Source: Candidatus Micrarchaeota archaeon (GTDB lineage: Archaea > Micrarchaeota > Micrarchaeia > Micrarchaeales > CABMGC01). Taken from it: a stretch of DNA of 63,098 nucleotides. The notes under the pieces are model-generated. The model saw nothing but the letters and a program-made list of their open reading frames with translations. It made no database searches and was not told where the DNA came from. The stretch spans positions 1 through 63,098 of the forward strand of contig JAJZLT010000016.1 in the NCBI GenBank assembly GCA_021803245.1, read 5' to 3'. Positions 1-34,292 of the stretch are shown here, one piece after another; positions within the stretch are counted from its first letter, which is position 1, and each line of letters opens with the position of its first letter. The translations under genes and the position numbers were made by a program.

Positions 1-211
1 TGCGGGAACGAAGCTGCAGGAAAATTATGCGGCATGGAAGGGAGCGCTCTTCCGTTCATCAGTCTTTGCAATCAGAAATAGGGGGTGTTAGGTGAATGGG
101 GATCTGGTGGGACAATAATTAGCACCTAACACCTATTGGTTGATGTAAAAAGCCAGATATATAAGCATTACTGTGAATAGGGTTTCGACAAACAGGATTG
201 TTATTTTGAAG

Positions 212-283
212 GGCCTTAGCCGGGATTCGAACCCGGACCTGGGGATCCACAGTCCCCTATGCTAGCCATTACACCACTGAGGC
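212..283 (-). tRNA. tRNA-His (anticodon GTG)
   Basis: The reverse complement folds as a cloverleaf. Acceptor GCCTCAG/CTAAGGC has one C-A mismatch. The D loop carries GG. Anticodon stem GGGGA/TCCCC with loop CTGTGGA. T arm CCGGG-TTCGAAT-CCCGG, discriminator C. No encoded CCA, and the nucleotide at -1 is T, not G. Confidence 0.8.
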
Positions 284-357
284 ATTTGAAGTAACTTGAA
301 TGTATATGTATAGAATAATAAATAGGCAGTGCAGGATTTATAGAATAAGCGTATAGA

Positions 358-2130
358 CTATGGCGTAGGACCCTGATTCCTGTCCATCCTGTCCGTTATG
401 GACCCATCATGATGCGTGCTTTGACTGCTCTTGCTTTTCCTTTGTGCTTCAAACTCCTCGTCGCGTAATTTTTCCAATCTTTCTTCGGCACGGACTTCAG
501 CATCCATTTCAGCGCCTATCTTTCTCATTTTATATTCAGGACTTTGTGGCTTTAAATGGCTTTTATACCAATAATATATGCCTCTTTTGCTTCCTTCTGT
601 CAATTTTACATAAAACATAAATTCGTTATATTCTTTATATTGCCTTGCCTTTCTTGCTTCACTTAGCACTGCTTCTATTGGCTTTTTTTGAAAGTATTGA
701 TTATCTTCCCATGGATATCGTCCCGGTACTACCAATGTTTCTCTGGCATTTTTGGGTGGCACTTGTTCTCTTACTCTACTTTCGTATTTTTGGGTTAATA
801 AATCACGGTCTCTTGAGGAATCTTCTGTCTTTTGCGCCTTTTCTATACGTTTATATTCGAAGAATTCTGGGCTACCTGGCATATTTTTTGCCTTATATCT
901 GAAAAGAATTTCAGAATTTTCCTTTGAGTAGGCTTCAATATAAGCTGCAGTTAAATTTCCAGTAACGCCTTCCGCAGCCCCATTGTCCAACAACAATTTT
1001 GTTATTCTATCCCTTCTATGGGCTATAGAAAAGAAGATTGGTGGAGCTTCTATATAAGTTGTGTGGTCTGGTAGTTCGCGTATATATGCCGGGGATCGCT
1101 TGTATATATCTGCCCCGTATAGTATATACAATTTTGCACTTTCTATATCATTGTCTTCTATTGCCTGCACTAGATAAGATTTTCCATAACTTAATTCTTC
1201 TCTGTTTATGTCCCCTCCTGCCCGTAACAATAGTCTTACTGTTTCAAGGGTTTCAGTTTTGCCTAATGGAATATAGTCAGGCTCGTACAACTCAGTTTTC
1301 TTTGCTTTGTCAATAGCAGCTTCTATTTCTAAGCGCCTTCTTAAAAGGGCGTGTCTCAATGCACTCTGTATGTTATGCATTAGCGGCTTTACCTGGCTCT
1401 CCTGAAGCAGCAATCTTACTTTTTCATGCCTGCCTGCACCTGAAGCTACGGTCAATGGCGTTTTATAGCTTATGCCTAATGGATCTCCGTATTTGTACTT
1501 TTTCATGAATACTCTTTGGTATTTGTCATCTCCAAGCCACCTGCTTCGCATCCTTCCCCGGTAGTAATATGCATGGTTTACTAATCCACCCTCTACTACT
1601 TTCTCCTTAAATTTTTCTATCTCGAATTTAGATTGGCTTAGCTTCTCAATCTTATCAGGATGGGAAGGGTCCTTTGGTAGTAGATTACGCCTGCGCCTTA
1701 ATCTATAGAGATACGCTCCTGCAAGAAGACTAGTACCTGCGGCTCCGATGATTACGGCATCTTGCGCAGACCTGTCTTTTCCTATTCCTAAATCACGCAT
1801 CACTTCTTTTATCGGTTTGTATTTTTCTGCCTCTTTGAGTATGCCCGATGCGTTGGTTTCGACTTTCTTTATAATGCCATTATTCTTGCCACCAGTTGCA
1901 TGCACGACGGCCGTAGAATTAAAAACCTTGCTGTTTGTTTGCTGTGCGCTGCCTGTAGCGGTAAAAGCGGCCATCGATGATAGGGAAATTGCAGCCATTG
2001 CTAAAGAGGCGTTTATTGCCCTTCTTAGATTATGAGGCGTGGATCCTCTTACCTCGATGTCTCTTCTCAGTTTGCTTAGTTGATTTGCCTTTGAAGCGCA
2101 GCTTGCTGCATGCGGTAGTGTAGCTTTCAT
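358..2130 (-). CDS. Ankyrin-repeat protein with N-terminal hydrophobic/RR-containing segment and a second hydrophobic segment (590 aa)
   Basis: ANK-like motifs TVRLLLRAGGDIN, AKLYILYGADIY and ITKLLLDNGAAEG. N-terminus RRAINASLAMAAISLSSMAAFTATGSA. Shares the module EKYKPIKEVMRDLGIGKDRSAQDAVIIG with the next gene. Confidence 0.7.
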   Translation of the reverse strand: MKATLPHAASCASKANQLSKLRRDIEVRGSTPHNLRRAINASLAMAAISLSSMAAFTATGSAQQTNSKVFNSTAVVHATGGKNNGIIKKVETNASGILKEAEKYKPIKEVMRDLGIGKDRSAQDAVIIGAAGTSLLAGAYLYRLRRRRNLLPKDPSHPDKIEKLSQSKFEIEKFKEKVVEGGLVNHAYYYRGRMRSRWLGDDKYQRVFMKKYKYGDPLGISYKTPLTVASGAGRHEKVRLLLQESQVKPLMHNIQSALRHALLRRRLEIEAAIDKAKKTELYEPDYIPLGKTETLETVRLLLRAGGDINREELSYGKSYLVQAIEDNDIESAKLYILYGADIYKRSPAYIRELPDHTTYIEAPPIFFSIAHRRDRITKLLLDNGAAEGVTGNLTAAYIEAYSKENSEILFRYKAKNMPGSPEFFEYKRIEKAQKTEDSSRDRDLLTQKYESRVREQVPPKNARETLVVPGRYPWEDNQYFQKKPIEAVLSEARKARQYKEYNEFMFYVKLTEGSKRGIYYWYKSHLKPQSPEYKMRKIGAEMDAEVRAEERLEKLRDEEFEAQRKSKSSQSTHHDGSITDRMDRNQGPTP

Positions 2131-2261
2131 GAATTAATCCCTTCGATCTTACTATATTAACATTGCTACAGAAATATTGATTTTTCTTTAATATACTTGG
2201 TGTATTTTAAATAGATTGTAAATTTTCCGATGGAGCAGCTTTAAATACGCTTTTAATGTTA

Positions 2262-3239
2262 TCAATAGCCAAAAGTTTCTATGGCTGCATTTATCAATGA
2301 TTCTGCCTTCTGATAGGCTACTGCCGCGGCTGCATGCATTCCGATTTCATTGAGTACCTCGATGAATTCGTTCATCTGTTTAACTGCTTCGTTTCTTGAA
2401 AGGCTTTCTCTCATCATTTTTTCAGGCATCATATTCGTTACCACATATTCTATGGCAGATATGCCGTTTTTATCGGTAGCCAATGGATTAGCACCGGCCT
2501 CTATCAATGCTAATGCAACAGTGGGCATTGATGCGTGCATCAAAGGCGTGAAGTCGCTTGAGAAGCGACGTTGAGTGTAATAGTTTTTATCGGTAAATGA
2601 ACCAATTCCGTACCCGAAATTCACAGGGCCATAATGCCTGTTTACATCGGCTCCTTTTCGAATCATTTCTATAACTCCATTCACCGATCCATTTTCGATG
2701 GCCTTGGTTAATTTTCGGTCTAAGCCACTTTTTTTCATTTCAGAATTATCTGAATCTTCATATTTGTGCCTAAGCAGCCGTCTCTTGACAGGATGATATC
2801 TTCTTCTTAGTGTTTCCTCTGCGCCAATTACGCCTAATGCGGCTATGCCAAGTATAATTTCATCCTGTGCCGTCTTGTTCTTGGCAAGTCCTAGTTTTCG
2901 CATTATTTCTTTTACTGGCTTGTACTTCTCTATGCTGTTCAGGGTTTCTGATGCCCAATTTTCTTTTTCTTTTGCAGCACTATGATCTTCTTTGGCTCCT
3001 GTTTTAGGCCTATTTGTTGTTTCAACTGACTTGACCATTACCGCTGCAGGCTGCTGCCTGTACAATTCACGGAACGAAGGCGCAAAGGACGCTGTGAGTG
3101 AAGCTGCAATCATGGATGATGCAAACGTTTTTGAAATTTTATTCTTAACATGAACAGCGCTGCTTTCTTTTCTCTGCAATGCTGCAGCTAGTTGTGATGC
3201 ATTATTACGTTCATCTGCATGTACACGATTTACTCCCAT
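2262..3239 (-). CDS. Ankyrin-repeat protein, paralogous N-terminal module to 358-2130 (325 aa)
   Basis: ANK motifs VIEMIRKGADVN and TPLMHASMPTVALALIEAGANPLATDKNGISAIEY. Shared module EKYKPVKEIMRKLGLAKNKTAQDEIILG. N-terminal hydrophobic stretch. Confidence 0.7.
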   Translation of the reverse strand: MGVNRVHADERNNASQLAAALQRKESSAVHVKNKISKTFASSMIAASLTASFAPSFRELYRQQPAAVMVKSVETTNRPKTGAKEDHSAAKEKENWASETLNSIEKYKPVKEIMRKLGLAKNKTAQDEIILGIAALGVIGAEETLRRRYHPVKRRLLRHKYEDSDNSEMKKSGLDRKLTKAIENGSVNGVIEMIRKGADVNRHYGPVNFGYGIGSFTDKNYYTQRRFSSDFTPLMHASMPTVALALIEAGANPLATDKNGISAIEYVVTNMMPEKMMRESLSRNEAVKQMNEFIEVLNEIGMHAAAAVAYQKAESLINAAIETFGY

Positions 3240-3271
3240 GATTTAACCCCTCATATTCGCTATGGCGATTT

Positions 3272-4483
3272 CTAGGCCTCTTCTATTTCTTGTTTTATAT
3301 ACTGCGCCAGTGAAGAGGCTTCTGCCTGCCTGCCAATTTTGCCGTCTAACACAGACGCCAGCACGTATGGGATATTATTTACAAGCTGTCCTGTTCCCCT
3401 AAACTGATTTTTTTCATCTGCATTATAATTATTAACTTCATACTTTACTGCATCTCTTGCCAGATTCTGCAGGACTTTTTCTCGAGCTTTGCGCGAAGCT
3501 TCAGCAGTATTATCAGTAGCATATGGCTTTGCAAGAGCATCCATTAGCGTATCTATAAAAGAGCTCAGCTCCTCTTTTGTGGGGAGATATGCTATGGTTG
3601 ATGCCCCCCAGTACCATTTATACTGATCTTTGGAATATGCAGGAGGGCCTGCTTTTAAAGCAGGGCTTGCCAGTTCTATTGCTGTCATCAGCAATGTCTT
3701 GCCATTTTTATCCATTATGTCCGCTTCCGCGCCATGCTCCAGGTAAGCCTTCGCAGTTTCCAGGTGCCCCCACCTTACGCTCTTAAACAAGGAATCGTGG
3801 TCAGTTGCTGTGGCAGCCCTCTTATTCAGTTCTGACTTTACTGCTGCAAGCTCTGCAGACAGGAGCAAAACAGGTATTGCATCGTTGTTCTTCATGTCAA
3901 AGAAATTCATCCTGTCAAAGGCCCGGCGCCCCTCATTGTTAACTGCATTAATATCTGCGCCGCGTGAGATCAAAGAGTATGCTTTGTCCATATCGCTTGC
4001 TATGGCCCCAGGTATAAGCCAGCGGTTATCCCCGAGTTTTTTAATATCATTCACTACTGAAGTTATAGTGCGGAAGAGCTCTGTCTCGCCTCTGCTGTCC
4101 TTTGCATCTATGCCGTGCTCATGATGTATCGTAATTGGCAGAAGTTGCAATGGACCACGCTGTGCAGTTTCAGAAGGCGAATTTAAAATTTTATTGCTCG
4201 GCGTTTCTTCCGCGCCAGGCATGCCTGACATGTATCTCAGGTGGTTTGCAAGCCATGGATTTCTCTCCGACCAATCGCGTTCTTGCTCTTCCGGGCTTTG
4301 GCGGTAATGCGGCTGCGGAAGCACTATGGGCTGCGTTCTCTTGATTCCTTCTTCATTGGAAAGGGCATTGCTCCTGCGCAGCAGCCTCTTTAACCGCGAT
4401 GCTCCGGCACTCCTGGTTTCGCCCATGCCTGAAGCGCCGATTGTTGTATTGGCTCCTGGCTCCTTTTCTTTCCTGCTCCTCAT
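3272..4483 (-). CDS. Soluble ankyrin-repeat protein (403 aa)
   Basis: ANK motifs AYSLISRGADINAVNNEGRRAFD and ETAKAYLEHGAEADIMDKNGKTLLMTAIE. No TM segment seen. Confidence 0.75.
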   Translation of the reverse strand: MRSRKEKEPGANTTIGASGMGETRSAGASRLKRLLRRSNALSNEEGIKRTQPIVLPQPHYRQSPEEQERDWSERNPWLANHLRYMSGMPGAEETPSNKILNSPSETAQRGPLQLLPITIHHEHGIDAKDSRGETELFRTITSVVNDIKKLGDNRWLIPGAIASDMDKAYSLISRGADINAVNNEGRRAFDRMNFFDMKNNDAIPVLLLSAELAAVKSELNKRAATATDHDSLFKSVRWGHLETAKAYLEHGAEADIMDKNGKTLLMTAIELASPALKAGPPAYSKDQYKWYWGASTIAYLPTKEELSSFIDTLMDALAKPYATDNTAEASRKAREKVLQNLARDAVKYEVNNYNADEKNQFRGTGQLVNNIPYVLASVLDGKIGRQAEASSLAQYIKQEIEEA

Positions 4484-4580
4484 CTTACCCTATTGTATGC
4501 ATCTTTCCAGATATATAGCTTTTTGGGAGTTAGAAATTGTCGTCTGAATCATTTACTGATCCTTTTATAAATCAGTATGT

Positions 4581-4590
4581 CTTTTATATC
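4581..4590 (+). promoter_or_regulatory. TATA-like box about 25 nt upstream of the GTG start at 4614 (possible leaderless transcript)
   Basis: CTTTTATATC sits in the 130-bp divergent intergenic region. A second TTTTATAAAT lies at 4563-4572. Confidence 0.3.
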
Positions 4591-4613
4591 ATCTAAGGCA
4601 TAATTGTACTGGT

Positions 4614-6716
4614 GTGCTGGTGTTTTTCGCATTTGCTGTATTGCTCTCTATTGGCGCGATAAATGCGCTGATACCTATAATTATAATACTGATACTTATA
4701 GCTGCTGCGGCTGGCTCTACCAGGGGATACAGCATCTTTGCAATATTGGGCATAGGCACAATTGCAGGAATGGGGCCAAGCGGAAAAGGCAGCATGGCTG
4801 GGAAAGGAAGCTATCCTTTCAGATCCATTCTTGATCCGAATATAAGAGGGCCCAGGAAGTCTCCAGAGGCTAAGAAGAGGAAAGCAGAGAGGAAAGAGAA
4901 GGCAAAAAAGGAAGAAGAAATTCGCAGGAGCAGACCTTTGCCTTTAGGAGCGCCAACGCCTAAAAGATCACTAAAACCATGGCAGAAGAGGACCATTAAG
5001 GTAGCAAGATGGGCAGTTGCACCCGCAATAGTTGGCAGTGGCATTGTAGTTTATCAGAAAGGCTTGGCAGTGGCTAGAAGGATAGCGAGGTCAGCGAATC
5101 CGCAGGACAAGCGGGATGCCAGATCTGCAAGGACAGGAGTAGCAACGGACCGGCTTAGCAGAAGCCTTGACTCACGGAAAGCCCCACAGTATAAACCAAA
5201 TACCACTCCAGGAGCGCCTCCTGGAAGCGGGATGGTTACAAACAGATTGAGCACAGAGAATAGGGAAATTATAAGAAGAATATTAGATGCCAGAAGTAGG
5301 GGAATAGGAGCAGTGCCTACAAGCGCCATTGGGGTTGGGGCAGGGACTGAATTAAGGAGGGCTGCCCTGGCACTTAAAAACCGCCAATTCAAGGTGGCCA
5401 ATACGCACCTAAACAATGTTTCCAAGATAGTGAGCCATAACCTGCAGCAGAGGCAGCTAAATGCAGTTTCCGGAAAGGCTTTGCAGGAAAGGCAAAAACT
5501 CCTGAAGGACATGAATGAAGCAAACGAAATAGGAAAGGGACGCACTGCGACAAGAGGAGGGACTACTTACACAGGAGCAGATGTAGGTGCTGCAAAAACT
5601 ATATGGGGCTCTCTTGCGATGACTGGAATTGCGAAGCTTAGAGGAGACAAATATGGATCTGATTTATATAAGAGAGATGCTCTTGCGCAGCTTAAGGTTA
5701 GGAGCGCAGAGGGTGGCCTTGCACTCTCCGATAGGCTCAGGCATGGAGTAACTGATAAAAAAGGCAGTGTAACCATGGGTCCGCTTCATCAGCAAATAGG
5801 AAGAGCGGCAAGGCAAGAAAAAGCTGGCGAAAACACCAGAGCAAGGGAAAAACACCTGCGTGAGCTTGAAATGTTTCTGTATGGCTCTGTAGGACAGATT
5901 GGAGCTTTCGAAAAGATGTATGGAGTCACTAATCCAGGCAAAGTAGTTAAGTTGAGAGAGAGGGTAAAAGCCGAACAGGCAATTGCAGATTACAAATATA
6001 GTGGAGATCCGGCTGCACTGACAGCGATGAATAGCGCTAAAACGTCAGGAATTATCAGTGATCAGGAATACAATAAAGCCGTTATCGCAGGCCCGTATTC
6101 ATTTACGAGAAAAGAGTATGAATCGCAGACAGAGAAAAACAAAAATGCCATGGAAAACGTTTTGCAGATTGAGATTGGAAGGATAGCATTTGCACAGGAT
6201 AAACTTGCGCACGGCGAAATAACACATGATGTTTATGAAAAAGAGATGGGCAAGATACAGAAGGAGCAGAACCTTCTCAGTAAGCTCGCATATGAGCATT
6301 CACGGCTAACCTCAGGAAACCCTCCTGGAAGGATAGAGGTAGGCTTTAAGCGCAAAATTGGACCGGAAGGAGGGGTAGAGGCGAACGGGCTTCTGCCTAC
6401 CATAAAAATAAACCCGCGCCAGACCGGCACAAGCGGCGTGGCACAGCGGTTGTTTGAGTTTCATAGGAATGTAAATACTATTAACAAGCTAAAAGAAAGG
6501 GGCGACAGAGAATTCTTGCCCCCGACCAACGGCATATTGAATGCTTCTGGAAGATGGCGCAATGAAAACGTTACCAAGTACCACTCCTTTGAAGTTGGCA
6601 GTGCGCCTGCGATGAATAGGAGTGTGTATGAAATAGGGGAAGGAAAACATGTTGAATACCAATTAAGGCGCAGGAGGGTAGTGCCTCTGCCTCACTGGGA
6701 GAGGAAAGAGACATGA
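4614..6716 (+). CDS. Membrane-anchored, extremely basic (K/R-rich), partly coiled-coil protein of unknown function (700 aa)
   Basis: Long ORF with an N-terminal hydrophobic hairpin (LLSIGAINALIPIIIILILIAAAAG ... IFAILGIGTIAGMG), a third hydrophobic segment (WAVAPAIVGSGIVVY), then a K/R/E-rich sequence. First gene of the plus-strand locus. Confidence 0.6.
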   Translation: MLVFFAFAVLLSIGAINALIPIIIILILIAAAAGSTRGYSIFAILGIGTIAGMGPSGKGSMAGKGSYPFRSILDPNIRGPRKSPEAKKRKAERKEKAKKEEEIRRSRPLPLGAPTPKRSLKPWQKRTIKVARWAVAPAIVGSGIVVYQKGLAVARRIARSANPQDKRDARSARTGVATDRLSRSLDSRKAPQYKPNTTPGAPPGSGMVTNRLSTENREIIRRILDARSRGIGAVPTSAIGVGAGTELRRAALALKNRQFKVANTHLNNVSKIVSHNLQQRQLNAVSGKALQERQKLLKDMNEANEIGKGRTATRGGTTYTGADVGAAKTIWGSLAMTGIAKLRGDKYGSDLYKRDALAQLKVRSAEGGLALSDRLRHGVTDKKGSVTMGPLHQQIGRAARQEKAGENTRAREKHLRELEMFLYGSVGQIGAFEKMYGVTNPGKVVKLRERVKAEQAIADYKYSGDPAALTAMNSAKTSGIISDQEYNKAVIAGPYSFTRKEYESQTEKNKNAMENVLQIEIGRIAFAQDKLAHGEITHDVYEKEMGKIQKEQNLLSKLAYEHSRLTSGNPPGRIEVGFKRKIGPEGGVEANGLLPTIKINPRQTGTSGVAQRLFEFHRNVNTINKLKERGDREFLPPTNGILNASGRWRNENVTKYHSFEVGSAPAMNRSVYEIGEGKHVEYQLRRRRVVPLPHWERKET

Positions 6717-6800
6717 GGCTAGCCCATGGAGATCAATTTAGGTGCTTGGACTTTGGCGATAGGCTCTTCCTGAAGCATCTCCACTCTCTTCATAGATATC

Positions 6801-6812
6801 TAATTATATAAT
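6801..6812 (+). promoter_or_regulatory. TATA-like box about 25 nt upstream of ATG 6832
   Basis: TAATTATATAAT is centred about 25 nt before the start codon. There is a 115-nt gap after the preceding gene. Confidence 0.3.
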
Positions 6813-6831
6813 TTGCCATAGATATAGCACT

Positions 6832-8085
6832 ATGCGCCTAGCCAGTAGCATTTCCAGGGTCCTACTTTTCATGCTTTTCTTTCTTGGCATAGCTAACGCG
6901 TGCAGTGCAGCAGCGAACACAGCAGGATTTAATTTATCCTCTATTAACAATGGAAGCGGGCTGGAACTCTCTTTCATCGCACTTCTTATCTCAGTAGACG
7001 TGATAGCGATCGGTTGGATTGCAAACAAGATCCTACCTTCCATAGGCATAGCAGGCTGGCTGCCGAGAGAGTACTGGGAATTTACTAAATCTGCAATTCT
7101 GGTAACTGTGATCTTCTCAGTGATAGCGTTCGTAAGCGGGCTCTCCTTGCTTCTCGGAGGAGTCACTCCGCCCACTGCAGGAGCAGCACAGACATATGCT
7201 GCAAATGCAAATGCACTGGTCTACCAGTCTGAGACTTATCTTTGCACAGTTGACAACTCCCTCCAGGCTTCAATGGCAAACGTAGTCACGCTCTCTTTCG
7301 GATTGGGCGAAGTGAACGGAGCATATGGCGCCGTAGGTTCCTTTGCTGATGGGCAGGGCGGAAATCCCGGCTCGTATGCGGGCCTTGCGCTCTTCTATCA
7401 GGGCATACCGATCCCGCCTGTTCCACTGCCAGGATTTTTCGGGCTACTTCCGGAATTCAGGTCAGGCATAAACTTTGTCATACTCAGCAACTTCATGCTC
7501 GGCTCGAACTTCGTCTTCCACAGCCAGTTTGTCTCATTCATAAACGATGCGCTTGTCTTCCTGGCCTTCCCGATGGCCCTCTTCTTTATCTCTGAAGAGA
7601 AGCTGCTCCCCCTGCTTGTGCTTATAGGGCTCAACGTGCTCATACCAATCGGCCTTGTCTTCCGCTCTTTCCCGTTCCTGCGGAACATAGGGGGAACTCT
7701 GGTGGCGCTCGGCATAGGCGTTTCGCTCATCTGGCCATCGCTGCTGCTGCTGATCAATGTGCCGCTTACTGGTTACTTCAAGCCATTGCTCTATGACACC
7801 ACCTCATCAAGCACAGCGTTCTCAAACAGCTGCCCCGGCTTCTTCGCCATTATATGCAACGGAGTAAACACGCTCTTCACCGGAACATTCTACGGTTTTG
7901 ACAGCATAGACAATATTTATCCGGATATCAACTTCCTTATGAAAAATGAGCTCTTTATAATATTCCAGCAGTATGTGCTCTTCATGATAGACCTGGTAAT
8001 CTTCTTCCCGCTCACCGATGCAATAGCGAGAACACTCGGAGGCACAATCAGGCTTCAGCTCGGAAAGAGGTTTAAGCTGGTGTAG
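6832..8085 (+). CDS. Polytopic membrane protein, paralog 1 of 6 (signal-peptide-like N-terminus)
   Basis: Motif VFRSFPFLRNIGGTLVALGIGVSLIWP. N-terminus MRLASSISRVLLFMLFFLGIANAC. Many hydrophobic segments. Confidence 0.8.
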   Translation: MRLASSISRVLLFMLFFLGIANACSAAANTAGFNLSSINNGSGLELSFIALLISVDVIAIGWIANKILPSIGIAGWLPREYWEFTKSAILVTVIFSVIAFVSGLSLLLGGVTPPTAGAAQTYAANANALVYQSETYLCTVDNSLQASMANVVTLSFGLGEVNGAYGAVGSFADGQGGNPGSYAGLALFYQGIPIPPVPLPGFFGLLPEFRSGINFVILSNFMLGSNFVFHSQFVSFINDALVFLAFPMALFFISEEKLLPLLVLIGLNVLIPIGLVFRSFPFLRNIGGTLVALGIGVSLIWPSLLLLINVPLTGYFKPLLYDTTSSSTAFSNSCPGFFAIICNGVNTLFTGTFYGFDSIDNIYPDINFLMKNELFIIFQQYVLFMIDLVIFFPLTDAIARTLGGTIRLQLGKRFKLV

Positions 8086-8087
8086 AT

Positions 8088-9260
8088 ATGATAGGCCTAT
8101 TCTCGTTTGCAAACTTCATGCTCGCTGCCACGACTACTTACCAGGCTACCTGCTCCTATGCATATCTGAACCAGGCCGGCTGGATAAACATAAACATGCT
8201 TGTTGTACTGGCATTCATGCTTATTGCATCGCTGATATATGCGATAAGCTCGCTGCTTCCTGCTTCGAAGAGCGAGAGGGCCAAGGGCCTTGTGAAATTT
8301 GAATTGGTGCAGGGCGTAATAAGCGTTCTGCTCATAGTGGCCATACTTTCCTTCGCAGATGTTACGTGCAATGCAGGCGCAGCGCTTATGGGTCCGTACA
8401 GCGGATATCAGGATCCATTCCAGTACTCGCATTTCTATCTAGGAACCCTTGTCTTTACCACAGGCGTCTCGCTTATTTCGAGCTTGTGGTCGCAGGGAAT
8501 AATACTGCTGGTGGACGGAAACCTGGTAGGCGACTTCCTAAGCAGCATTCCGCTGGGCCATCTTAGTCTAGGCCCATTCAGCGGTGAATTTGGCATAGGT
8601 GAAGAAGCCACATATGTCTTTTTCGAATACAACGGAATACTCACGCAGGTCTTCTCGGTCATCGTAGTGCTTACTTCCGGAATACTGGTCATCGTATTCC
8701 TTATCCTGCCTGCGGTAGAGCAGCTCGCCCTTGGTGTTGTGCTGCCCGTGGCTATCATAATGAGATCGCTTTCATTTACCGGGCCCAGGCTGCGTGAGGC
8801 TGCCAATTCATTCATCGCTCTTGCTCTTGCCTTCTATTTCGTCTTCCCCATGACAATAGTTATGGACAGTTATATTGTAGGATGGCTCTACTGCACCAAC
8901 GGAACGACATGCAATCCTTATTCAGGCTATCTTGGTTCATATCCGCTGAGCAATCTGCCGGTAAGCCCGCTCTTCAAGCAGACAAGCGAGACAACATTAG
9001 GCCTTGGCGCGCCGCTGAGTATTTACAGCGCAGAGGTAAGCGGAAATGGAGGCATAGGAAGCATGCTGACGCAACTGCTTGAGGGCCTGGTAAGGCTGCC
9101 TGCGCTTGTGCAGAATTTTATACCTTCTGTGGCAGAGTACGTCTTCCAGGGCGTTATGCTTTTAGGGCTTGACCTTGCAATAACAGTCGGATTTGCAATA
9201 GGTCTTACAAAGAGCTTTGCTGCAGCTTCAAGTTTTATGCATATTGGCCCGGTGCTTTGA
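8088..9260 (+). CDS. Polytopic membrane protein, paralog 2 of 6 (most divergent)
   Basis: Starts 2 nt after the previous stop, with GGTG upstream. Degenerate motif IMRSLSFTGPRLREAANSFIALALAFYFVFP. Same TM layout as the other paralogs. Confidence 0.75.
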   Translation: MIGLFSFANFMLAATTTYQATCSYAYLNQAGWININMLVVLAFMLIASLIYAISSLLPASKSERAKGLVKFELVQGVISVLLIVAILSFADVTCNAGAALMGPYSGYQDPFQYSHFYLGTLVFTTGVSLISSLWSQGIILLVDGNLVGDFLSSIPLGHLSLGPFSGEFGIGEEATYVFFEYNGILTQVFSVIVVLTSGILVIVFLILPAVEQLALGVVLPVAIIMRSLSFTGPRLREAANSFIALALAFYFVFPMTIVMDSYIVGWLYCTNGTTCNPYSGYLGSYPLSNLPVSPLFKQTSETTLGLGAPLSIYSAEVSGNGGIGSMLTQLLEGLVRLPALVQNFIPSVAEYVFQGVMLLGLDLAITVGFAIGLTKSFAAASSFMHIGPVL

Positions 9261-9311
9261 AATGGATGATACTGCAAGATTTAACGGGGCATGCAAATTG
9301 GTGGGGCTACG

Positions 9312-10766
9312 ATGAGGTCATCTGTACTGCTTATACTGTTATGCGCTCTGCTCCTGCCTTTCCTTATCACATCCACAGCGGCTGCCGCGCCCCAGACCAA
9401 AACCACCATAACAAATGCAAATGTGCTAAACCAGTGGCTAAGTGTTATAATGATAGCGGTGCTGGCCAGCGTGCTGCTGCTTATCTTTTACTATGTTGCA
9501 GGATACCTTCTCAATAATGCGCAGATAAAGACAACTGCAATCAACGAGATCCAGCAGGCTTTCGGCACAGCAGTGGCAGTCTTTATAATAATAGCTGCAC
9601 TTGATTTTGTAGGGAATGCGGTTTTCTCTAGTACAAATCTCGTGCCTCCTTCGACCATAAGCAACATCTGCACTACCTTGACTGGCGCTAATCTGGATTT
9701 TGTGAAAAATGCTGCACCTAATGGATATTACACGCCTACAAACACTCTCTGCAATGGCATTATAAGCAAGGCCAAAAGCGGCACTCTCAGCGTCTCAAAT
9801 TCCATCGACTATGGCTTAGGGGCCTCTTACATAATAATAGCCAACATAACCAACCAGAGCCTCACTAATCTGAATGCGGTCTACATTTTCGAGAGCTATA
9901 CCGGATTCTTGACCGCACTGAACCCCACGGCAAGCGTTTGCATACCTAATGATATCTGCCTGACTGAAGGTGTGCCGGCCTTCTACGCTTCTATCAGCTA
10001 TGCACCTTTTGCCGCTTATGGAACTCTTAGGGGAGTTGTCTTTCCTGTAGCCTCGCAATCAGAGATGATTTTTTACATGAGTCTGCTGGAGGAGATGGCG
10101 ATACTGCTTATGCTTTACGCATGGCCATATATACTCGCTGCGGGCATAATACTGCGCGCGTTTACTTTTACCCGGCGGGCAGGCGGGCTTATCATTGCCT
10201 TGGTGCTCTCTGCCCTGATTATCTTCCCGCTGATAATGCTTTTTGAGTACTCCTCTCTTACTAATCCGCATATAGTGCCGGTAGGTGCGAATGAGATAAC
10301 CGTAAATGCGATAAGCAATAGCATTGCGCTTAAAGGATTACCCGTTGGAAAAACCAACACCCCTGCAAACGTAATAGATTACAGCTCCGGCACCATAAAC
10401 TTCTTCTCCTTCCCGCGCGCAGACTACGTGCTTAATTACGAAGGCTGCTGGCCCGGCACGTCAATGCTTACCAGGGAAGCGGAGATAGTAGGAGGTTATG
10501 CCATACCGGGTTACGGGGAATTTCTCACCCTCTCAACTGTGCTCGGATCGTTCACTGGATCGGTGCCTGCTGTGCCCTTCACAAATTGCAACTGGCCCAA
10601 TGTAATACACTCGCTCTTTGCGCTTGAAAACCTCTATGGAATACTCTCAGTGATAGGAATAATAGTGCCAATACTCAATCTCCTGCTTGTGCTTGGCAGC
10701 GCCAGAAGCCTATCATTCCTGCTTGGCGGAGACATGAATATCTTTGGGCTTGGGCGCTTGTTGTAG
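9312..10766 (+). CDS. Polytopic membrane protein, paralog 3 of 6
   Basis: Motif ILRAFTFTRRAGGLIIALVLSALIIFP. I prefer the ATG at 9312 (MRSSVLLILL..., GGTGGGG upstream) over the track start at 9291. Confidence 0.8.
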   Translation: MRSSVLLILLCALLLPFLITSTAAAAPQTKTTITNANVLNQWLSVIMIAVLASVLLLIFYYVAGYLLNNAQIKTTAINEIQQAFGTAVAVFIIIAALDFVGNAVFSSTNLVPPSTISNICTTLTGANLDFVKNAAPNGYYTPTNTLCNGIISKAKSGTLSVSNSIDYGLGASYIIIANITNQSLTNLNAVYIFESYTGFLTALNPTASVCIPNDICLTEGVPAFYASISYAPFAAYGTLRGVVFPVASQSEMIFYMSLLEEMAILLMLYAWPYILAAGIILRAFTFTRRAGGLIIALVLSALIIFPLIMLFEYSSLTNPHIVPVGANEITVNAISNSIALKGLPVGKTNTPANVIDYSSGTINFFSFPRADYVLNYEGCWPGTSMLTREAEIVGGYAIPGYGEFLTLSTVLGSFTGSVPAVPFTNCNWPNVIHSLFALENLYGILSVIGIIVPILNLLLVLGSARSLSFLLGGDMNIFGLGRLL

Positions 10767-10774
10767 GTTTGACC

Positions 10775-11989
10775 ATGAAAAAATACGCGCTCGCACTGCT
10801 CTTTGCCTTTTTCGTATTAGCTTCGCCTTCACTCGACATGGCGTCACCTCCCGCTACAATAGGTAGCACATACTGCACGCCCATCTTTACGCCTAGCAAA
10901 GCAGTAGTCTCTACTTCATTCGTGCTAAGCCCCGGCTCTGTGCCAATACACGGTACTTTTGGCGGGGTGATAAGCATAGCCCTCCTCATAGTGCTGATGG
11001 TGTTTACTGTAATAGCACTCGTATATGGGGTAGGAGTAGCTTTCAGAATAGACAAGCTTATTAGATTCGGTCGCGCCGAGCTTCTTGAATCGTTTGCGAA
11101 CGTAGTGATAATAGTAGTAATAGCGTTTGGGGTAGGAACCATACTAGGCGCAGCGTCTTTCCTTGCCAACCTGGGCTCGCTTAATGTGGTTGCTCCTTCA
11201 TCCGGTTTTTCCACAGGCGTGCAGGGTTTCTATACCAACACATGCATAAACATCTTCAACAACGTCATAATAACCAGCTTATTTGACATGGTAGGAGGCC
11301 TTGCTAACGCTGTCGTCTACGAGATACTTGACGACTTCCAGCTAACTTTCGTGCCAGGGGGCTACATTTCCTATGTTGTACCTGGTTTTGAGGTCCAGCC
11401 ATTTCAGGGAATAGGCCCAATAGTCTCGCTGACCTTCGTTGAGACCTCCACATTTACAGCATTCATTATGACAGGATTGGGCATAATCTTCATGCTTTTT
11501 GTCATTTATTACCTTTTCCCTGTCTTCCTTTATTTGGGGATAGTGCTCAGGTCATTCCCATGGACGAGACCGGCAGGAGGTGCGCTTATAGCGATATTCG
11601 TCTCGTTTTACATCTTCTTCCCCGCCCTACTCTATCCTTTCACTACCTTCGGCAGTAGCGTCAGTAACATATACTGCAATGGCTCTTCATCGCACGGAGG
11701 AACCACTTCAACCACCGGGAGTCCAGTTCCGGATATCTGCAGCTCAAATAATATTACGCATTACATCGCTACTGGGGGCATAGATGCCTTGCTGGCCCTT
11801 TTGGGCAACATTAACGCCGCATTCAACAGTAATGTAGAGATATATGCGAGCATGGTAGCCGCATTCGCGATTGAGTTTATAGGATTTGCCATAGCATTTC
11901 TTATATCCTACGACCTGCTGGAGGTTTTTGGAGACCTGTTCGGCTCGCCTTCGCTGCAGGCGAATAGAATACTGAGTAGATTGATATGA
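10775..11989 (+). CDS. Polytopic membrane protein, paralog 4 of 6
   Basis: Motif VLRSFPWTRPAGGALIAIFVSFYIFFP. ATG at 10775 (MKKYALALLFAFF) is preferred over the TTG at 10769. Confidence 0.8.
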   Translation: MKKYALALLFAFFVLASPSLDMASPPATIGSTYCTPIFTPSKAVVSTSFVLSPGSVPIHGTFGGVISIALLIVLMVFTVIALVYGVGVAFRIDKLIRFGRAELLESFANVVIIVVIAFGVGTILGAASFLANLGSLNVVAPSSGFSTGVQGFYTNTCINIFNNVIITSLFDMVGGLANAVVYEILDDFQLTFVPGGYISYVVPGFEVQPFQGIGPIVSLTFVETSTFTAFIMTGLGIIFMLFVIYYLFPVFLYLGIVLRSFPWTRPAGGALIAIFVSFYIFFPALLYPFTTFGSSVSNIYCNGSSSHGGTTSTTGSPVPDICSSNNITHYIATGGIDALLALLGNINAAFNSNVEIYASMVAAFAIEFIGFAIAFLISYDLLEVFGDLFGSPSLQANRILSRLI

Positions 11990-13185
11990 TGCTTTTGCCT
12001 TTTCTCTTGCCTGGGGGATATGCGCTTGCTGCCAACGGATGCTCAGCCACAGGCGGTGCGGCAAGCCTGGCCAACTATATTACCGCACCATGCGGGGCAT
12101 GGTTCCCTATTGCATTGATAGCCGTACTGATGGTGATAGGGCTTATGGCCATAATATATGGCCTGAGTGAATTCATAGGAAGGAATGATATAAAGACGTG
12201 GGTCAGGGTAAAGATTTATGACGCGCTGCTTTCTATAGTCTTTATACTCATCTTTGCTGCATTCGGCACGCTCTTATTTACGATACCTGTAGCATCAACC
12301 CTGCAGAGCGTGAAGCTCTTCCCTGGAAGCGGGGGAAGCACGCCTTCTGAATGCGCAGCCCAATCGCCTACGAAAGTAAACAACCTTTATTCGGTAGCGT
12401 CGTGCGACATGTTCCTCTTCAACTTTTACGAAGCGAACCTAAACTTATATATATTCTATAGCTTTCTTCTTACTTCTGCAGTATCCCCATCGATAGGATT
12501 CGCGCTCAGTTTTGGGCCAGGCTCGCTAAGCAGCGGAGGCAGCACAGGCAGCCTTGCAGGCAGCGTAGGAATCGGTGCTTCAGGCATTGAGATCTTCCCG
12601 CAATACGCGTCTTATAAATTCCTTGGGCCGGTGCTCGACCTTTTCTATGGCCTGATACTGCTGAATCAGGTTCAGCTTATACTTATCGCAGCTTCCGGGT
12701 TAATCTTCTCCATCTTTATGGCACTTGGACTGATTGCAAGGGCTTTTGTGATAACGCGCACGTTCGGTGGCGCGATGATAGCATTTGCAATAGGAATAGG
12801 ATTTATCTACCCTCTTCTTGTTTCGATAAACTATGGCTTTCTTGTATATGCGCTCTCTACAAACACGCTGAGTTCTCTTGTAAATTTCTCAAGCGGAACC
12901 TTTGCGTTTTTTGGCGTGCCTCTGATGTTTATTAATCTGATAGCAAGCCTGACAACAGGCCTCGTTGGTTCTGCCCTCTCATTCTTTTCTGTTGGCAGTT
13001 CGGCATATACTCAAGTGGTAAGCGTATTTCCTGCCGCCCTCTTTGAGTACTTCGGCCTTGTGATTTCAGGGCTTATGTTCATACCTGTGCTTGAGCTTGT
13101 GCTTGTCGACGTCTTCATCATAGACTTCTCGCAGGCGATAGGGGAACGCATGGACCTCCTCTCGCTATTTACGAGGCTGCTGTGA
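11986..13185 (+). CDS. Polytopic membrane protein, paralog 5 of 6
   Basis: ATGA start/stop overlap with the previous gene. Motif IARAFVITRTFGGAMIAFAIGIGFIYP. Confidence 0.8.
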   Translation: MMLLPFLLPGGYALAANGCSATGGAASLANYITAPCGAWFPIALIAVLMVIGLMAIIYGLSEFIGRNDIKTWVRVKIYDALLSIVFILIFAAFGTLLFTIPVASTLQSVKLFPGSGGSTPSECAAQSPTKVNNLYSVASCDMFLFNFYEANLNLYIFYSFLLTSAVSPSIGFALSFGPGSLSSGGSTGSLAGSVGIGASGIEIFPQYASYKFLGPVLDLFYGLILLNQVQLILIAASGLIFSIFMALGLIARAFVITRTFGGAMIAFAIGIGFIYPLLVSINYGFLVYALSTNTLSSLVNFSSGTFAFFGVPLMFINLIASLTTGLVGSALSFFSVGSSAYTQVVSVFPAALFEYFGLVISGLMFIPVLELVLVDVFIIDFSQAIGERMDLLSLFTRLL

Positions 13186-13195
13186 GCTGATTTGC

Positions 13196-14275
13196 ATGAG
13201 GAGAATACTTGTTTATCTCATCCCGCTTTCGCTTCTTCTAATCAGCATAGCCCACTCCTCTTACTTCTCCACTTACTGCGCACCAGTAAGCACTGCTGCT
13301 ACAGGCTTTAATGTCAACGCGCTCGCGCCTTGGTACTGCAGCCAGATAAACCAGACTCTCGCCAGCGACTGGAGCTACTGGGAGCCAATTGCGTTTGCCG
13401 CAATCATGTTCTCGCTTGCAGTAGGAATAATAATATGGACCTTCGGAGGGCTCCTGCGAAACGAGCGGTTGAGGACGTTTGGCCTTGGCGAGCTTTATGA
13501 GGCGTTCGCAACCGCCGTAATAGTAGTGCTGTTTCTCTTCATCTCTGCAGTTATGCTCGGCCTGCTTCCCAGCGTCGTGGTAGGCAACATTAACCCGTAC
13601 AGCACATCGCTTAACTACATAGCAGGCACAATAAATTCTGTGCAGCAGGAGGTTTACAGCGCCTTTTATATAGAGGTTCTTGACCGATATTATTCCAGCA
13701 TAAGACTTCAGGTATGCATACTTGCTGTTTGCAAGGGCATACCGGAAACTTTCACATATATAATAAACTATCTTTACTATATCCCGGCTTTCACCATAAT
13801 AGACCTGCTGCTTGACGGGATCATGCTGCTGTACGGCGAATTCTACCTGATACAGATCTTCCTTTACATGGCCATACCGGTCTTCCTCATTCCAGGCATA
13901 ATACTTCGCGCGATAATGCCTACGAGGGGCATAGGCGGCATGATGATAGCTATTGCAATAGGCTTTTACGTTATAATGCCTATCCTCTTTGCAACTGCGT
14001 ACGCCTTCAGCGCAAAGCAGCTGATAAACCAGTTTGATGCGAATACGGCACAGTTCCAGCAGTATGGGCAGGGTACAGGTGCACAGATAAACGCCCTTAC
14101 CCCGTCTTCGCCGCTGATAGAGACGCTGACAAACATACAGAGCCAGATGGGAAGCTTCTGGCTTGCAGTTGTTTTCTGGCCTTCGCTCATAATAGGCATA
14201 TGCTACGAGATTATAATTCAGATAGCAGAATTCATAGGAGGCATGGCGCAGGGCTCAGGAAGGATGAGGATATAG
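13196..14275 (+). CDS. Polytopic membrane protein, paralog 6 of 6
   Basis: Motif ILRAIMPTRGIGGMMIAIAIGFYVIMP. N-terminal signal-like MRRILVYLIPLSLLLISIAHS. Confidence 0.8.
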   Translation: MRRILVYLIPLSLLLISIAHSSYFSTYCAPVSTAATGFNVNALAPWYCSQINQTLASDWSYWEPIAFAAIMFSLAVGIIIWTFGGLLRNERLRTFGLGELYEAFATAVIVVLFLFISAVMLGLLPSVVVGNINPYSTSLNYIAGTINSVQQEVYSAFYIEVLDRYYSSIRLQVCILAVCKGIPETFTYIINYLYYIPAFTIIDLLLDGIMLLYGEFYLIQIFLYMAIPVFLIPGIILRAIMPTRGIGGMMIAIAIGFYVIMPILFATAYAFSAKQLINQFDANTAQFQQYGQGTGAQINALTPSSPLIETLTNIQSQMGSFWLAVVFWPSLIIGICYEIIIQIAEFIGGMAQGSGRMRI

Positions 14276-14336
14276 CCGTAATTGGCACTTCCCTGCGTTA
14301 ATTTAATAAGCTTTCCAGTTTATTCTTAATTGATCG

Positions 14337-15176
14337 GTGTTCGTGTTGGCACTTAACCTGCAGCTCCTGCTCTTTGTGATACTCGTAGGAGCAGGAATAG
14401 TTGTTGCTGTCTTCATCTACGCTGTTCCGTCCCCTGTGCTTTCGCCGATTCTGGCAGTAATAACACTCGTAATTGCTGTCTTCGCTTTCGCCACTAAATA
14501 CTATACGTACCTGATGGTGCCTGCACTGAAGATGAAAGGCAGAACCATAGTGCTCAGCGCAGACGAACCGTTTATCATAGCGCCCAATAACGCCGCAATA
14601 TTGATGCATGAGGGACAGGAGGTTTACGCGAGCGCGTTCGTAAAAATTCCGCTTTACAGGTCTGCCACCGAGATGAGCAATGATGAGAAGCTCGATTTTG
14701 CGCGCCTCTTCTCGAGGATGACTACGCTCAGCAAGACACCTGTCAAGATCTCTTCGCAGATGCACGTGATAAACAAGGATGAATATATTACAAGCATAAG
14801 GAACAAGCTTAACGAGGCCCAGGAGCGATACGCCACGCTTGGGGCGAAGCCCGGGGGCAGCAAGGCAAGCAATGACAGAATAAAAGGCGAAGTCACCATG
14901 TGGAAGAACCTCATGGACAATGTCAGCGCCTCGCAGGCACATGCACTCACTATATATGCAATGGTCAGCGCTATGGGCGGCAATGAGGAGGAAGCATTGA
15001 CTATTGTCAATCAGCAGGCAGAGGATTTTGCTGCAGGAGTTAGCGCCATATTCGGAGTAAGTGCATATGTAGTGAAAGGCATCGAGCTTCTTACATTCAT
15101 AGAGCCGGACCACATGATACCGGTAGAGACGGTGACTGAAAGGCTTAAGGAGAAGGCTACAGAAGAGGCGCTATAG
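14337..15176 (+). CDS. 2-TM protein with soluble domain, paralog A (VirB3/VirB4-N-terminal-domain-like architecture, inferred)
   Basis: N-terminal hydrophobic hairpin followed by a roughly 200-aa soluble domain. Aligns by eye with the next gene. Confidence 0.65.
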   Translation: MFVLALNLQLLLFVILVGAGIVVAVFIYAVPSPVLSPILAVITLVIAVFAFATKYYTYLMVPALKMKGRTIVLSADEPFIIAPNNAAILMHEGQEVYASAFVKIPLYRSATEMSNDEKLDFARLFSRMTTLSKTPVKISSQMHVINKDEYITSIRNKLNEAQERYATLGAKPGGSKASNDRIKGEVTMWKNLMDNVSASQAHALTIYAMVSAMGGNEEEALTIVNQQAEDFAAGVSAIFGVSAYVVKGIELLTFIEPDHMIPVETVTERLKEKATEEAL

Positions 15177-16001
15177 ATGGACGAGTATACCATAATGTAC
15201 TTATCGATTTCAGGCATACTCATATTCATCGTTATTGCAGGCTATGGCGCATACGGCTCATTTGCACCGTTCGTGATCGTCTTGGCCATACTTGCCATGC
15301 TACTTATACTCTTGCTTAATTATGCCGACTTCGTGATCTTCCCGGTTATAACGCAGGTGCTTGGAATAAAGGTGCTCCTCTGGAAGGATTACATGGTGCC
15401 CAAGACAGAGAACTGCGTGATAAAATACACTAAAGGGCTGTACTACGCGCAGGGCTATCTCTCGGCAAACATTTATAACTACATCTTCGCTGCGGAAAAC
15501 ATAAACCAGGAAGAAGATGCAGGCATAATCAGCGGTGCAGATAAATGGGAGAGGATAGTTATGAGCATAGACTTTCCGTTCAAGTTTAATGTAGTTTCAC
15601 TCGCAGAAGAATTGCAGAAGCACAGGGAAGAGCTTGAAGGCAGGCGCGGTTTCCTGCAGTTTCAGATGTCGCGGGAAATGAGCAGCGGCAATCCAAACAC
15701 TCTGACAATACAGGAGATGCAGAAGAAGATAAATATAATACAGGCAAGGATAGACAGGATCTCGGCAGGAGAAAGGCCGGTGAAGACGATAATGTACATA
15801 GAAACAGTTGCAGTCGGAGTCAGCGAGAAAGAGGCCACAGATAACCTTACCAATCAGCTAAACAAGCTGATTACAGTGTTCAATTCATTCGACCTGAGCA
15901 TAATGCGCGTAACGGGAAGGGAGATGCATATACTCAACAAACTTAACTATAGGATTATGGACTTTGACCTGCTTAACAGACAGTTCCAGCTGCAAAAATA
16001 A
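15177..16001 (+). CDS. 2-TM protein with soluble domain, paralog B
   Basis: ATG lies immediately after the previous stop. Same layout as paralog A. KTIMYIETVAVGVSEKEATDNLTNQLNKLITVFNSF aligns with ALTIYAMVSAMGGNEEEALTIVNQQAEDFAAGVSAIF in A. Confidence 0.65.
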   Translation: MDEYTIMYLSISGILIFIVIAGYGAYGSFAPFVIVLAILAMLLILLLNYADFVIFPVITQVLGIKVLLWKDYMVPKTENCVIKYTKGLYYAQGYLSANIYNYIFAAENINQEEDAGIISGADKWERIVMSIDFPFKFNVVSLAEELQKHREELEGRRGFLQFQMSREMSSGNPNTLTIQEMQKKINIIQARIDRISAGERPVKTIMYIETVAVGVSEKEATDNLTNQLNKLITVFNSFDLSIMRVTGREMHILNKLNYRIMDFDLLNRQFQLQK

Positions 16002-16040
16002 ATGAAATATATTTAAGCTTTGAAAGCCAAGTGCATTTGT

Positions 16041-17555: not shown

Positions 17556-17556
17556 T

Positions 17557-19131: not shown

Positions 19132-19135
19132 GCTT

Positions 19136-19282
19136 ATGGAATATAAATTTGTCGTAAACAAGCAGTACAAATACATGCGCATATACAATATAGTAAAGAA
19201 GGTCAGCGGAAACCCCAATATAATCTCAAAGGCAATACAGTCGCTTGTTGACAAATACATAGTCAAGAAGAAACCGCTTTGA
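19136..19282 (+). CDS. Possible 48-aa lysine-rich small protein (not in the ORF track)
   Basis: Hand translation gives MEYKFVVNKQYKYMRIYNIVKKVSGNPNIISKAIQSLVDKYIVKKKPL. It exactly fills the gap between two genes. Confidence 0.3.
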   Translation: MEYKFVVNKQYKYMRIYNIVKKVSGNPNIISKAIQSLVDKYIVKKKPL

Positions 19283-19299
19283 CATTCACACTGGTCTTT

Positions 19300-34251: not shown

Positions 34252-34292
34252 ATAAGCGCGTTATCATTAATCAGGTTTTCTTATTTTATCCT

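Follow-up and report, generated by a model that had tools for sequence, protein, structure and literature searches.

How archaea of the DPANN group recognize and exploit their hosts is an open question, and since ankyrin-repeat (ANK) proteins are classic tools of symbionts, a set of ANK genes lying beside a membrane machine in such an organism is an apparent lead. Such a set, here named P1, P2, and P3, is carried by a single 63,098-bp contig (JAJZLT010000016.1) of a metagenome-assembled Candidatus Micrarchaeota genome, the whole of which is referred to as the window. The original prediction took the three proteins to be cargo or surface-exposed interaction modules of the adjacent machine, which is encoded by a gene cluster with a HerA/VirB4-superfamily ATPase, and supposed them to be aimed at a partner or host cell. 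Its premise that ANK proteins are uncommon in archaea agrees with published figures, 11% of archaeal strains having one and only four species having more than one (PMC3932732). Does the adjacency of the trio and the machine reflect a functional partnership? The comparative evidence makes the pairing a local accident of a variable slot beside a tRNA gene, and the reading favored on balance is that P1–P3 are species-specific ANK adaptors, two of them tethered to the inner face of the membrane and one soluble, inserted at a hotspot bordering the machine.

The three open reading frames (ORFs) lie in tandem on the minus strand exactly as first described, with P1 at 358–2130 (590 aa), P2 at 2262–3239 (325 aa), and P3 at 3272–4483 (403 aa). 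P1 scores above the Pfam cut-offs for Ank_2 (30.5 bits, cut-off 27.3) and Ank_3 (24.4, cut-off 22.3) and P3 for Ank_4 (31.8, cut-off 22.7), whereas the best model for P2, Ank, reaches 18.5 bits under a cut-off of 21.1 (17.6 for its sister-lineage orthologue), so that Pfam confirms the ANK assignment for two of the proteins and not for the third; the sister-lineage orthologues of P1–P3 give the same pattern. Matches to PDB sequences are found for all three. P1 is aligned over residues 224–368 (best E = 2.8e-8), and every listed match is an ANK protein or a designed ANK protein (DARPin), while P3 is aligned over residues 154–270 with designed and natural ANK proteins (best E = 1.1e-14), all but two (fusion constructs) of its 60 listed matches being named ANK proteins or DARPins. 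For P2, the best match (E = 1.9e-4) covers residues 164–201 and 230–273, and 18 of 18 matches with E ≤ 1 are ANK proteins. The ANK fold is thus supported at the level of sequence only, by alignments over two to four consecutive repeats; P1 and P3 are confirmed as ANK-repeat proteins, and P2 is a probable, weaker case.

Only about two to four repeats per protein are recognizable, and these are degenerate, some with long insertions. In P1, a membrane module is followed by about four irregular repeats (residues 224–385; 976–1461, minus strand; placed by Pfam and PDB alignments and motif positions), with an insertion of ∼45 aa after the first, and then by a charged C-terminal region of ∼190 aa. 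P2 has two to three weak repeats (residues 164–273; 2421–2750, minus strand), and P3 consists of a variable N-terminal part of ∼120 aa, which is probably disordered, an ANK core (residues 124–270; 3674–4114, minus strand), and a C-terminal domain of ∼130 aa without a family match. With the Pfam clan Ank (PF00023, PF12796, PF13606, and PF13637) the three proteins share 33-residue helix-turn-helix repeats with TPL.. and ..A...G....V.LLL..GAD.N signatures; they differ from it in that the repeats are few, degenerate, and interrupted, that P2 stays under threshold, and that P1 and P2 join the repeats to an orphan membrane-anchor module and P3 joins them to family-less flanks. PHROGs and PADLOC scans of P1–P3 gave weak matches at the ANK regions only and NCBIfam a single sub-threshold non-ANK match, for P2, with nothing pointing to a phage or defence origin.

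P3 stands head to head with G700 (4614–6716, plus strand, GTG start, 700 aa), the first gene of the machine cluster and not a member of the ANK family, over a divergent intergenic region of 130 bp (4484–4613, read from the sequence and assigned to neither strand). The claim that the trio faces the ATPase locus therefore holds for the spacer and for the cluster, whereas the ATPase gene itself (16020–17555, plus strand) lies 11.5 kb from the ANK genes, and their immediate divergent neighbor is G700.

The gene order of the machine is kept in 31 species-level Micrarchaeota loci (one genome scanned per species), 29 of which carry a Micrarchaeota taxon name, and these allow the adjacency to be judged. 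All ORFs of the 31 loci within 10 kb of the machine were searched by phmmer with an ANK consensus and with P1–P3, and ANK ORFs were found only in the window and in a sister lineage (locus L025, MAS3.bin71). Similarly, the Pfam tables of five related contexts contain no Ank match, and in a gene-order map the upstream neighbors of the machine vary and are never ANK genes outside the window and L025. Within this distance, co-occurrence of ANK genes with homologues of the ATPase locus, without which the original prediction was to fail, is consequently absent apart from the sister lineage.

A simpler explanation is offered by a tRNA-His gene (211–283, minus strand; GTG anticodon, found by ARAGORN), which borders P1 on the side away from the machine, delimits the ANK insertion there, and is 100% identical in the sister lineage. 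In L028 and L029, the G700-like gene is immediately preceded by tRNA-His (minus strand) without an intervening gene; L022 and L024 have a single plus-strand gene, unrelated to ANK, between the two; and the window species has the three ANK genes between tRNA-His and the machine. The tRNA gene is the ancestral upstream neighbor of the machine, and the slot beside the machine suggests a cassette-like variable site. Because this slot holds variable content in relatives, the adjacency of ANK genes and machine is accounted for, the simplest reading being that the trio was inserted into it. The arrangement resembles tRNA-adjacent variable regions (genomic islets) in that junction content differs among relatives, GC content at third codon positions (GC3) is low, and genes are strain-variable and mosaic. 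The slot genes of L022 (7355–7987) and L024 (1299–2354) each encode a protein with a signal-like segment at the N-terminus, which contains RR in L022, and a transmembrane (TM) anchor at the C-terminus, and the two proteins share, by eye, a C..P..F.DC..LS motif.

The predicted N-terminal module common to two of the proteins, with its flanking hydrophobic segment, is borne out. BLASTP aligns 183 residues of P1 and P2 (29% identity, E = 2e-13), falling in the N-terminal ∼180 aa, over which P2 appears as a paralogue of P1, and in the aligned part, EKYKP[IV]KE[IV]MR.LG..K...AQD precedes a hydrophobic segment. Each of the two proteins has, in this order, a basic N-terminal region, a moderately hydrophobic segment, a Ser/Thr/Asn-rich loop of ∼65 residues with the motif at its end, a second hydrophobic segment, and a strongly basic stretch. 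The module core, EKYKPIKEVMRDLGIGKDRSAQD, occupies residues 102–124 of P1 (1759–1827, minus strand) and corresponds to residues 104–126 of P2. The signal-like, RR-containing N-terminus that had been noticed is present in P1 (NLRRAINASLAMAAISLSSMAAFTATGSA), where the hydrophobic (h) region after NLRR, AINASLAMAAISLSSMAAFTATGSA (residues 38–62; 1945–2019, minus strand; Kyte–Doolittle peak 1.53), could serve as a signal peptide or as the first TM segment and has four K/R on its N side and one on its C side. Set against the pattern of twin-arginine translocation (Tat) signals, namely an S/T-R-R-x-F-L-K-like motif, a moderately hydrophobic h-region, and an A-x-A cleavage site, P1 has the RR, the h-region at 1.53, and a GSA/QQ junction, while its motif reads NLRRAINAS and its n-region is 37 residues long. 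The first segment of P2 is weaker than that of P1 and is without RR.

The second hydrophobic segment spans residues 126–142 in P1 and 128–140 in P2, the putative TM segment of P1, VIIGAAGTSLLAGAYLY, being delimited at residues 126–149 (1684–1755, minus strand; Kyte–Doolittle peak 1.36). It is followed by RLRRRRN in P1, with five K/R in the next 15 residues, and by RRRYHPVKRRLLRHK in P2, with eight K/R after the segment. Positively charged flanks of membrane segments are retained on the cytoplasmic side (the positive-inside rule), and because the second segment is followed by a polybasic stretch, the ANK domains of P1 and P2 are predicted to lie in the archaeon's own cytoplasm, tethered to the membrane, with the loop outside. 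This charge distribution conflicts with the proposal that the ANK domains are surface-exposed. N-x-S/T sequons number two in the P1 loop and one in each ANK region; for comparison, many occur in a clearly extracellular 804-aa protein encoded at 19279–21693. P3, expected to be soluble, indeed has no hydrophobic segment and no signal or anchor in its N-terminal 200 residues, the single weak internal peak (1.13) falling at residues 201–219. We infer that P1 and P2 arose by tandem duplication and that their module, made up of a signal or anchor segment, an exposed loop with an invariant EKYKPxKExMRxLG..K...AQD, a TM segment, and a polybasic stop-transfer sequence, most likely tethers the ANK domains to the cytoplasmic face of the membrane, while P3 would be a soluble cytoplasmic ANK protein; all three would most likely serve as adaptors in protein–protein interactions within the cell. 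Common ancestry of P3 with P1 and P2 was considered and is not borne out, since a profile–profile comparison finds nothing past one ANK repeat (probability 1.2%).

Homologues of the trio are very few. A word-indexed search of 5.8 billion proteins returned, for P1, one orthologue (84% identity) and one chance ANK match and, for P3, orthologues at 99, 91, and 81% identity and again one chance ANK match, while a profile of the N-terminal 190 residues, run exhaustively with HMMER against 1.84 billion representative proteins, found the P1/P2 module in two orthologue clusters only and nowhere else. By these searches, the family is confined to one species-level lineage, and P1–P3 appear to be new, very narrowly distributed ANK-repeat proteins, of which P1 and P2 carry an anchor module without relatives. 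No description of the locus, of P1–P3, or of the neighboring cluster was found in the literature on Micrarchaeota or DPANN archaea with VirB4 or ankyrin. A documented orphan family of membrane-anchored ANK proteins arising in a single Micrarchaeota species is one thing of lasting value here, the other being the conserved machine with its variable upstream slot.

Rates of evolution were compared between the window and the sister lineage across 18 kb. Synonymous divergence (dS) is even across this stretch (0.28–0.48, with 0.28–0.46 in the ANK genes), and because of this uniformity, the ANK genes share the history of the cluster since the lineages split. The ratio of nonsynonymous to synonymous divergence (dN/dS) is 0.41 for P1, 0.32 for P2, 0.22 for P3, and 0.21 for G700, whereas in the machine core it is 0.08–0.13 for the membrane paralogues and 0.02–0.04 for two ∼275-aa proteins and the ATPase. 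Within P1, the windowed ratio reaches its minimum (0.13–0.17) at residues 101–175, which hold the motif and the TM segment and form the most constrained stretch in P1/P2. P1–P3 are under purifying yet relaxed selection and are functional genes. Positive selection was considered and rejected, as the windowed ratio exceeds 1 solely at the frameshift in the P1 allele of the sister lineage, in unreliably aligned sequence.

Allelic variation differs among the three genes. In the sister lineage, P1 is frameshifted into an ORF of 452 aa and a second ORF (four independent assemblies), while in six of six window-type assemblies it is without differences from the window; no allele has a disrupted P2 or P3. 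For P3, there are at least three diverged N-terminal alleles, one of them mosaic: its first 160 residues represent a third variant, with 77% identity to the window and 82% to the sister lineage. The single contig with the mosaic allele (L065, ERZ27237454 k141_222500) is equivalent to window positions 1–4468 and is identical to the window up to ∼3990; the 5′ 470 nt of its P3 are ∼15% different and close to neither known lineage, and its last 80 nt match window positions 4710–4789 read in the opposite direction, which may be due either to a genuine inversion or to faulty assembly. In addition, the base just 3′ of the P1 stop codon, at window position 357, reads A here and G in six of six other window-type assemblies (L001–L006).

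Base composition sets the first two genes apart. A hand count had put several 60-nt lines within 481–1200 at a low GC content, and it was accurate: the 60-nt lines of this segment have 27–45% GC (mean 36.8%), and the segment falls in the lowest 0.4% of the 720-nt windows of the contig. In the same way, GC3 is 0.355 in P1 (z = −2.7) and 0.362 in P2 (z = −2.6), whereas the contig averages 0.516 ± 0.06 (59 genes), and it is mildly low in P3 (0.463) and G700 (0.435). The hint of a foreign origin, first given for P1, holds as a hint of foreign or lineage-specific origin for P2 as well, because low GC3 is joined by the lack of homologues beyond the species and by the insertion beside tRNA-His. The only comparable low-GC3 stretch in the contig is a small gene group after tRNA-Pro, at 34.5–37.2 kb.

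Separate TATA-like boxes can be read for each direction in the intergenic region 4484–4613, namely AGCTATATATCT on the minus strand ∼27–38 nt upstream of the P3 ATG and TTTATAAA and TTTTATAT ∼25–45 nt upstream of the G700 GTG. P3 and P2 are separated by 32 nt, in which a GAGG-like sequence precedes the P2 ATG by 10 nt, and the two genes are probably co-transcribed. The P2–P1 spacer (2131–2261, minus strand, read from the sequence) holds a TTAATATA box ∼26–33 nt upstream of the P1 ATG, and P1 probably has its own promoter; between the window and the sister lineage, this spacer is 64% identical with 34 gap columns.

Several findings weigh against reading P1–P3 as intracellular adaptors that came to lie beside the machine by insertion. 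Neither a direct repeat of at least 14 nt involving tRNA-His in positions 1–5000 nor att-like repeats around the tRNA gene were found, and ORF and family scans of the same 5 kb revealed no integrase or other mobile-element gene, the long ORFs there being the three ANK genes; in both respects the locus departs from tRNA-adjacent islets and integrated elements. The census of ANK genes in the other Micrarchaeota covered the 10 kb around each machine. G700 matches the ANK genes in evolutionary rate, and the 130-bp promoter region is more conserved between lineages (93% identity) than both flanking genes (84–85%), which are each compatible with a local functional link. The predicted topology is drawn from hydropathy and the positive-inside rule alone, the hydrophobic peaks are modest (Kyte–Doolittle 1.05–1.5), and the second segment of P2 has only 13 apolar residues ahead of EE. 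AlphaFold2 models were unusable (mean pLDDT 44 for P2 from a single sequence and 37 for P1 from a three-sequence alignment), and no interaction partner of P1–P3 is known.

These points have to be set beside what the alternatives explain. Delivery of the ANK proteins as cargo (effectors) by the adjacent VirB4-like machine into a host archaeon, where they would bind host proteins, would suit a DPANN symbiont, and ANK proteins, rare in archaea, are enriched in host-associated microbes (PMC3932732), while for another DPANN group, export of effectors by VirB4/TraG-like ATPases has been proposed (PMC10266531). Cargo would also fit the contrast in dN/dS between the ANK genes (0.22–0.41) and the machine core (0.02–0.13), the three or more diverged N-terminal alleles of P3 with one mosaic among them, and the head-to-head arrangement, over a conserved intergenic region, of the trio and the first gene of the machine. 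Yet the 30 other species-level loci have no ANK gene within 10 kb of the machine, the tRNA-His hotspot accounts for the adjacency, a TM segment with a polybasic cytoplasmic flank as in P1 and P2 is unexpected in soluble cargo, the putative machine ATPase is no closer to VirB4 than to HerA, and no window has a robust dN/dS above 1; none of the specific predictions of delivery was borne out here, and we regard it as unlikely and not worth experimental effort unless direct localization data revive it. A similarly low probability is given to the possibility that the proteins are cytoplasmic accessory factors of the machine, such as tethered adaptors or assembly chaperones for G700, added in this lineage. 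It would draw on ANK domains predicted to be cytoplasmic and membrane-tethered, a divergent promoter region that is 93% conserved, the similar divergence of G700 and the ANK genes (78–84% amino acid identity), and the presence in the window's clade of a single G700-like gene in place of a pair of ∼630 and 250 aa; against it, the G700-type loci L019, L022, L024, L028, and L029 do without ANK neighbors, evidence of co-evolution or interaction is lacking, and similar rates may equally reflect weak constraint on both.

Decay is the question on which another explanation turns, in which P1–P3 are recently acquired or duplicated passenger DNA at the tRNA hotspot with no current role. The split of P1 in four independent sister-lineage assemblies (452 aa and a second ORF), the low GC3, the highest dN/dS of the region, the failure of protein searches to find homologues outside the species, and the indel-rich P2–P1 spacer with its 64% identity would all be expected of such DNA. 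It is nevertheless improbable, since dN/dS is well under 1 at a dS of ∼0.3–0.46, constraint is strongest on the motif, TM segment, and ANK cores, all alleles have P2 and P3 intact, and P1 is unchanged in six of six window-type assemblies. Display of the ANK domains on the cell surface as modules for host adhesion or recognition is very improbable: the N-terminus of P1 resembles a signal peptide with RR and the organism lives attached to hosts, as inferred from DPANN biology, but an intracellular ANK region follows from the positive-inside rule, P3 is without an export signal, each ANK region has a single N-x-S/T sequon against the many of the 804-aa protein (19279–21693), and extracellular ANK domains are unusual. 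More speculatively, and with little probability, the trio might be strain-variable specificity factors or effectors of the machine, the machine might underlie a docking structure, and the slot might be a cassette site for host-interaction genes. The envelope of Micrarchaeon ARM-1 has an unidentified 21-nm barrel-like docking structure, to which the machine might be related (PMC11329633). If that were so, each lineage would plug in its own genes, ANK genes here and genes for proteins with a signal peptide and a TM segment in L022 and L024. The reading of P1–P3 as species-specific, fast-evolving small ANK proteins, inserted between tRNA-His and a conserved machine, would attribute the adjacency to the location of an insertion hotspot and not to a conserved functional partnership, and it leaves the conserved machine and its variable upstream slot as better targets of study than the ANK genes.

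The likeness to ANK effectors of type IV secretion systems (T4SSs), such as the Ank proteins of Legionella and Coxiella, AnkA of Anaplasma, and the ANK families of Wolbachia, lies in the occurrence of ANK proteins in an obligate symbiont, in the rapid divergence and lineage specificity of the tandem family, and in its proximity to the gene of a VirB4-superfamily ATPase. The differences are that the hosts would be archaea and not eukaryotes, that there is no T4SS in the defined sense and no recognizable translocation signal, that membrane anchoring, with the ANK domain inside, is apparent in two of the three proteins, and that the association with the machine is not conserved. To our knowledge, no archaeal signal model for translocation exists.

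The machine cluster comprises G700, six polytopic membrane proteins, two proteins of ∼275 aa, and the ATPase, and its membrane-machine part (6832–17555, plus strand) is defined by paralogy, Pfam, and gene order in relatives. G700 is very basic, has an N-terminal TM segment, and matches no family. The six membrane proteins are distant paralogues sharing an R..P..R..GG-type motif, and each of the ∼275-aa proteins has two N-terminal TM segments. The first membrane protein has homologues in Micrarchaeota, and in five of their contexts the genes are arranged in this order too. In the nearer relatives, the cluster opens with a G700-like gene; usually it opens with a pair of ∼630 and 250 aa, which the single G700-like gene replaces in the window's clade. 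The conserved cluster (4614–17555, reaching ∼21693; loci L019–L055) also has small ORFs of ∼100 and 125 aa, and the ATPase is its only product with a Pfam or NCBIfam assignment.

The ATPase (511 aa) had been called VirB4-like, which holds at the level of the superfamily but not of the family. Pfam matches are to DUF87, AAA_10, and a TraG P-loop, and the N-terminal VirB4 domain was not reported; NCBIfam models gave 60–67 bits for CedB/CedD (cut-offs 600–700) and 31.5 for VirB4_CagE TIGR00929 (cut-off 643.1), with the HerA model also far below its cut-off; and among PDB sequences, HerA (E = 3.3e-11) is a better match than VirB4 (E = 6.5e-7). The protein is also shorter than the ∼790-aa VirB4_CagE model that it partly matches. 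From these comparisons, it would be VirB4-like at the HerA-FtsK/VirB4 superfamily level only. The encoding of a DUF87/AAA_10/TraG-type P-loop ATPase together with polytopic membrane proteins recalls the Ced/Ted DNA-transfer systems and VirB4/HerA-FtsK ATPases, from whose Ced and VirB4 models the machine ATPase differs in its scores far under the family cut-offs, its shorter length, and the lack of the N-terminal VirB4 domain in Pfam. We know of no Ced system or T4SS that has six paralogous membrane proteins.

On the 3′ side of the ATPase gene (18406–21693), a 241-aa coiled-coil protein with a C-terminal winged-helix region and weak EAP30/PCI-like matches is encoded, at the position of which L021 has a gene with a weak CdvB_HTH match. 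The 804-aa protein encoded at 19279–21693 has an N-terminal TM segment, a large, presumably extracellular domain rich in N-x-S/T, a second TM segment, and a cytoplasmic tail. Both the 241-aa and the 804-aa proteins may belong to the machine.

The window sequence is also present in NCBI GCA_027343065.1, several ENA assemblies, one Logan assembly, and one JGI metagenome, and the contig carries genes for topoisomerase VI subunit B, aIF2-gamma, and CDC48. When window positions 1–18050 were compared with L025 and L007, a sharp break in identity between the window lineage and MAS3.bin71 was seen ∼48 bp beyond window position 1 (L001 ∼12179), and the window contig and several others terminate at this junction. 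On the side of tRNA-His with genes for pyruvate kinase, an 827-aa protein, and a CLC channel, the two lineages are 99.7–100% identical in nucleotide sequence, and from tRNA-His through at least 18 kb on the ANK and machine side, they are 83–94% identical (dS ∼0.3–0.48). The notion that the block of ANK and machine genes is an unusually divergent island was dropped, as dS is uniform and may equal the genome-wide distance. Outside tRNA-His near the contig end, an inverted repeat at 85–134, GGTGTTAGGTG ... CACCTAACACC, was read by eye and may be a terminator or a recombination-related hairpin. The low-GC3 islet directly after tRNA-Pro (34292–34366), at 34292–37177, contains four tandem genes for proteins of ∼200 aa (GC3 0.35–0.45), a winged helix-turn-helix protein, a DUF6036 nucleotidyltransferase, and two proteins without a family match, the first two of which look like a toxin–antitoxin-type pair.

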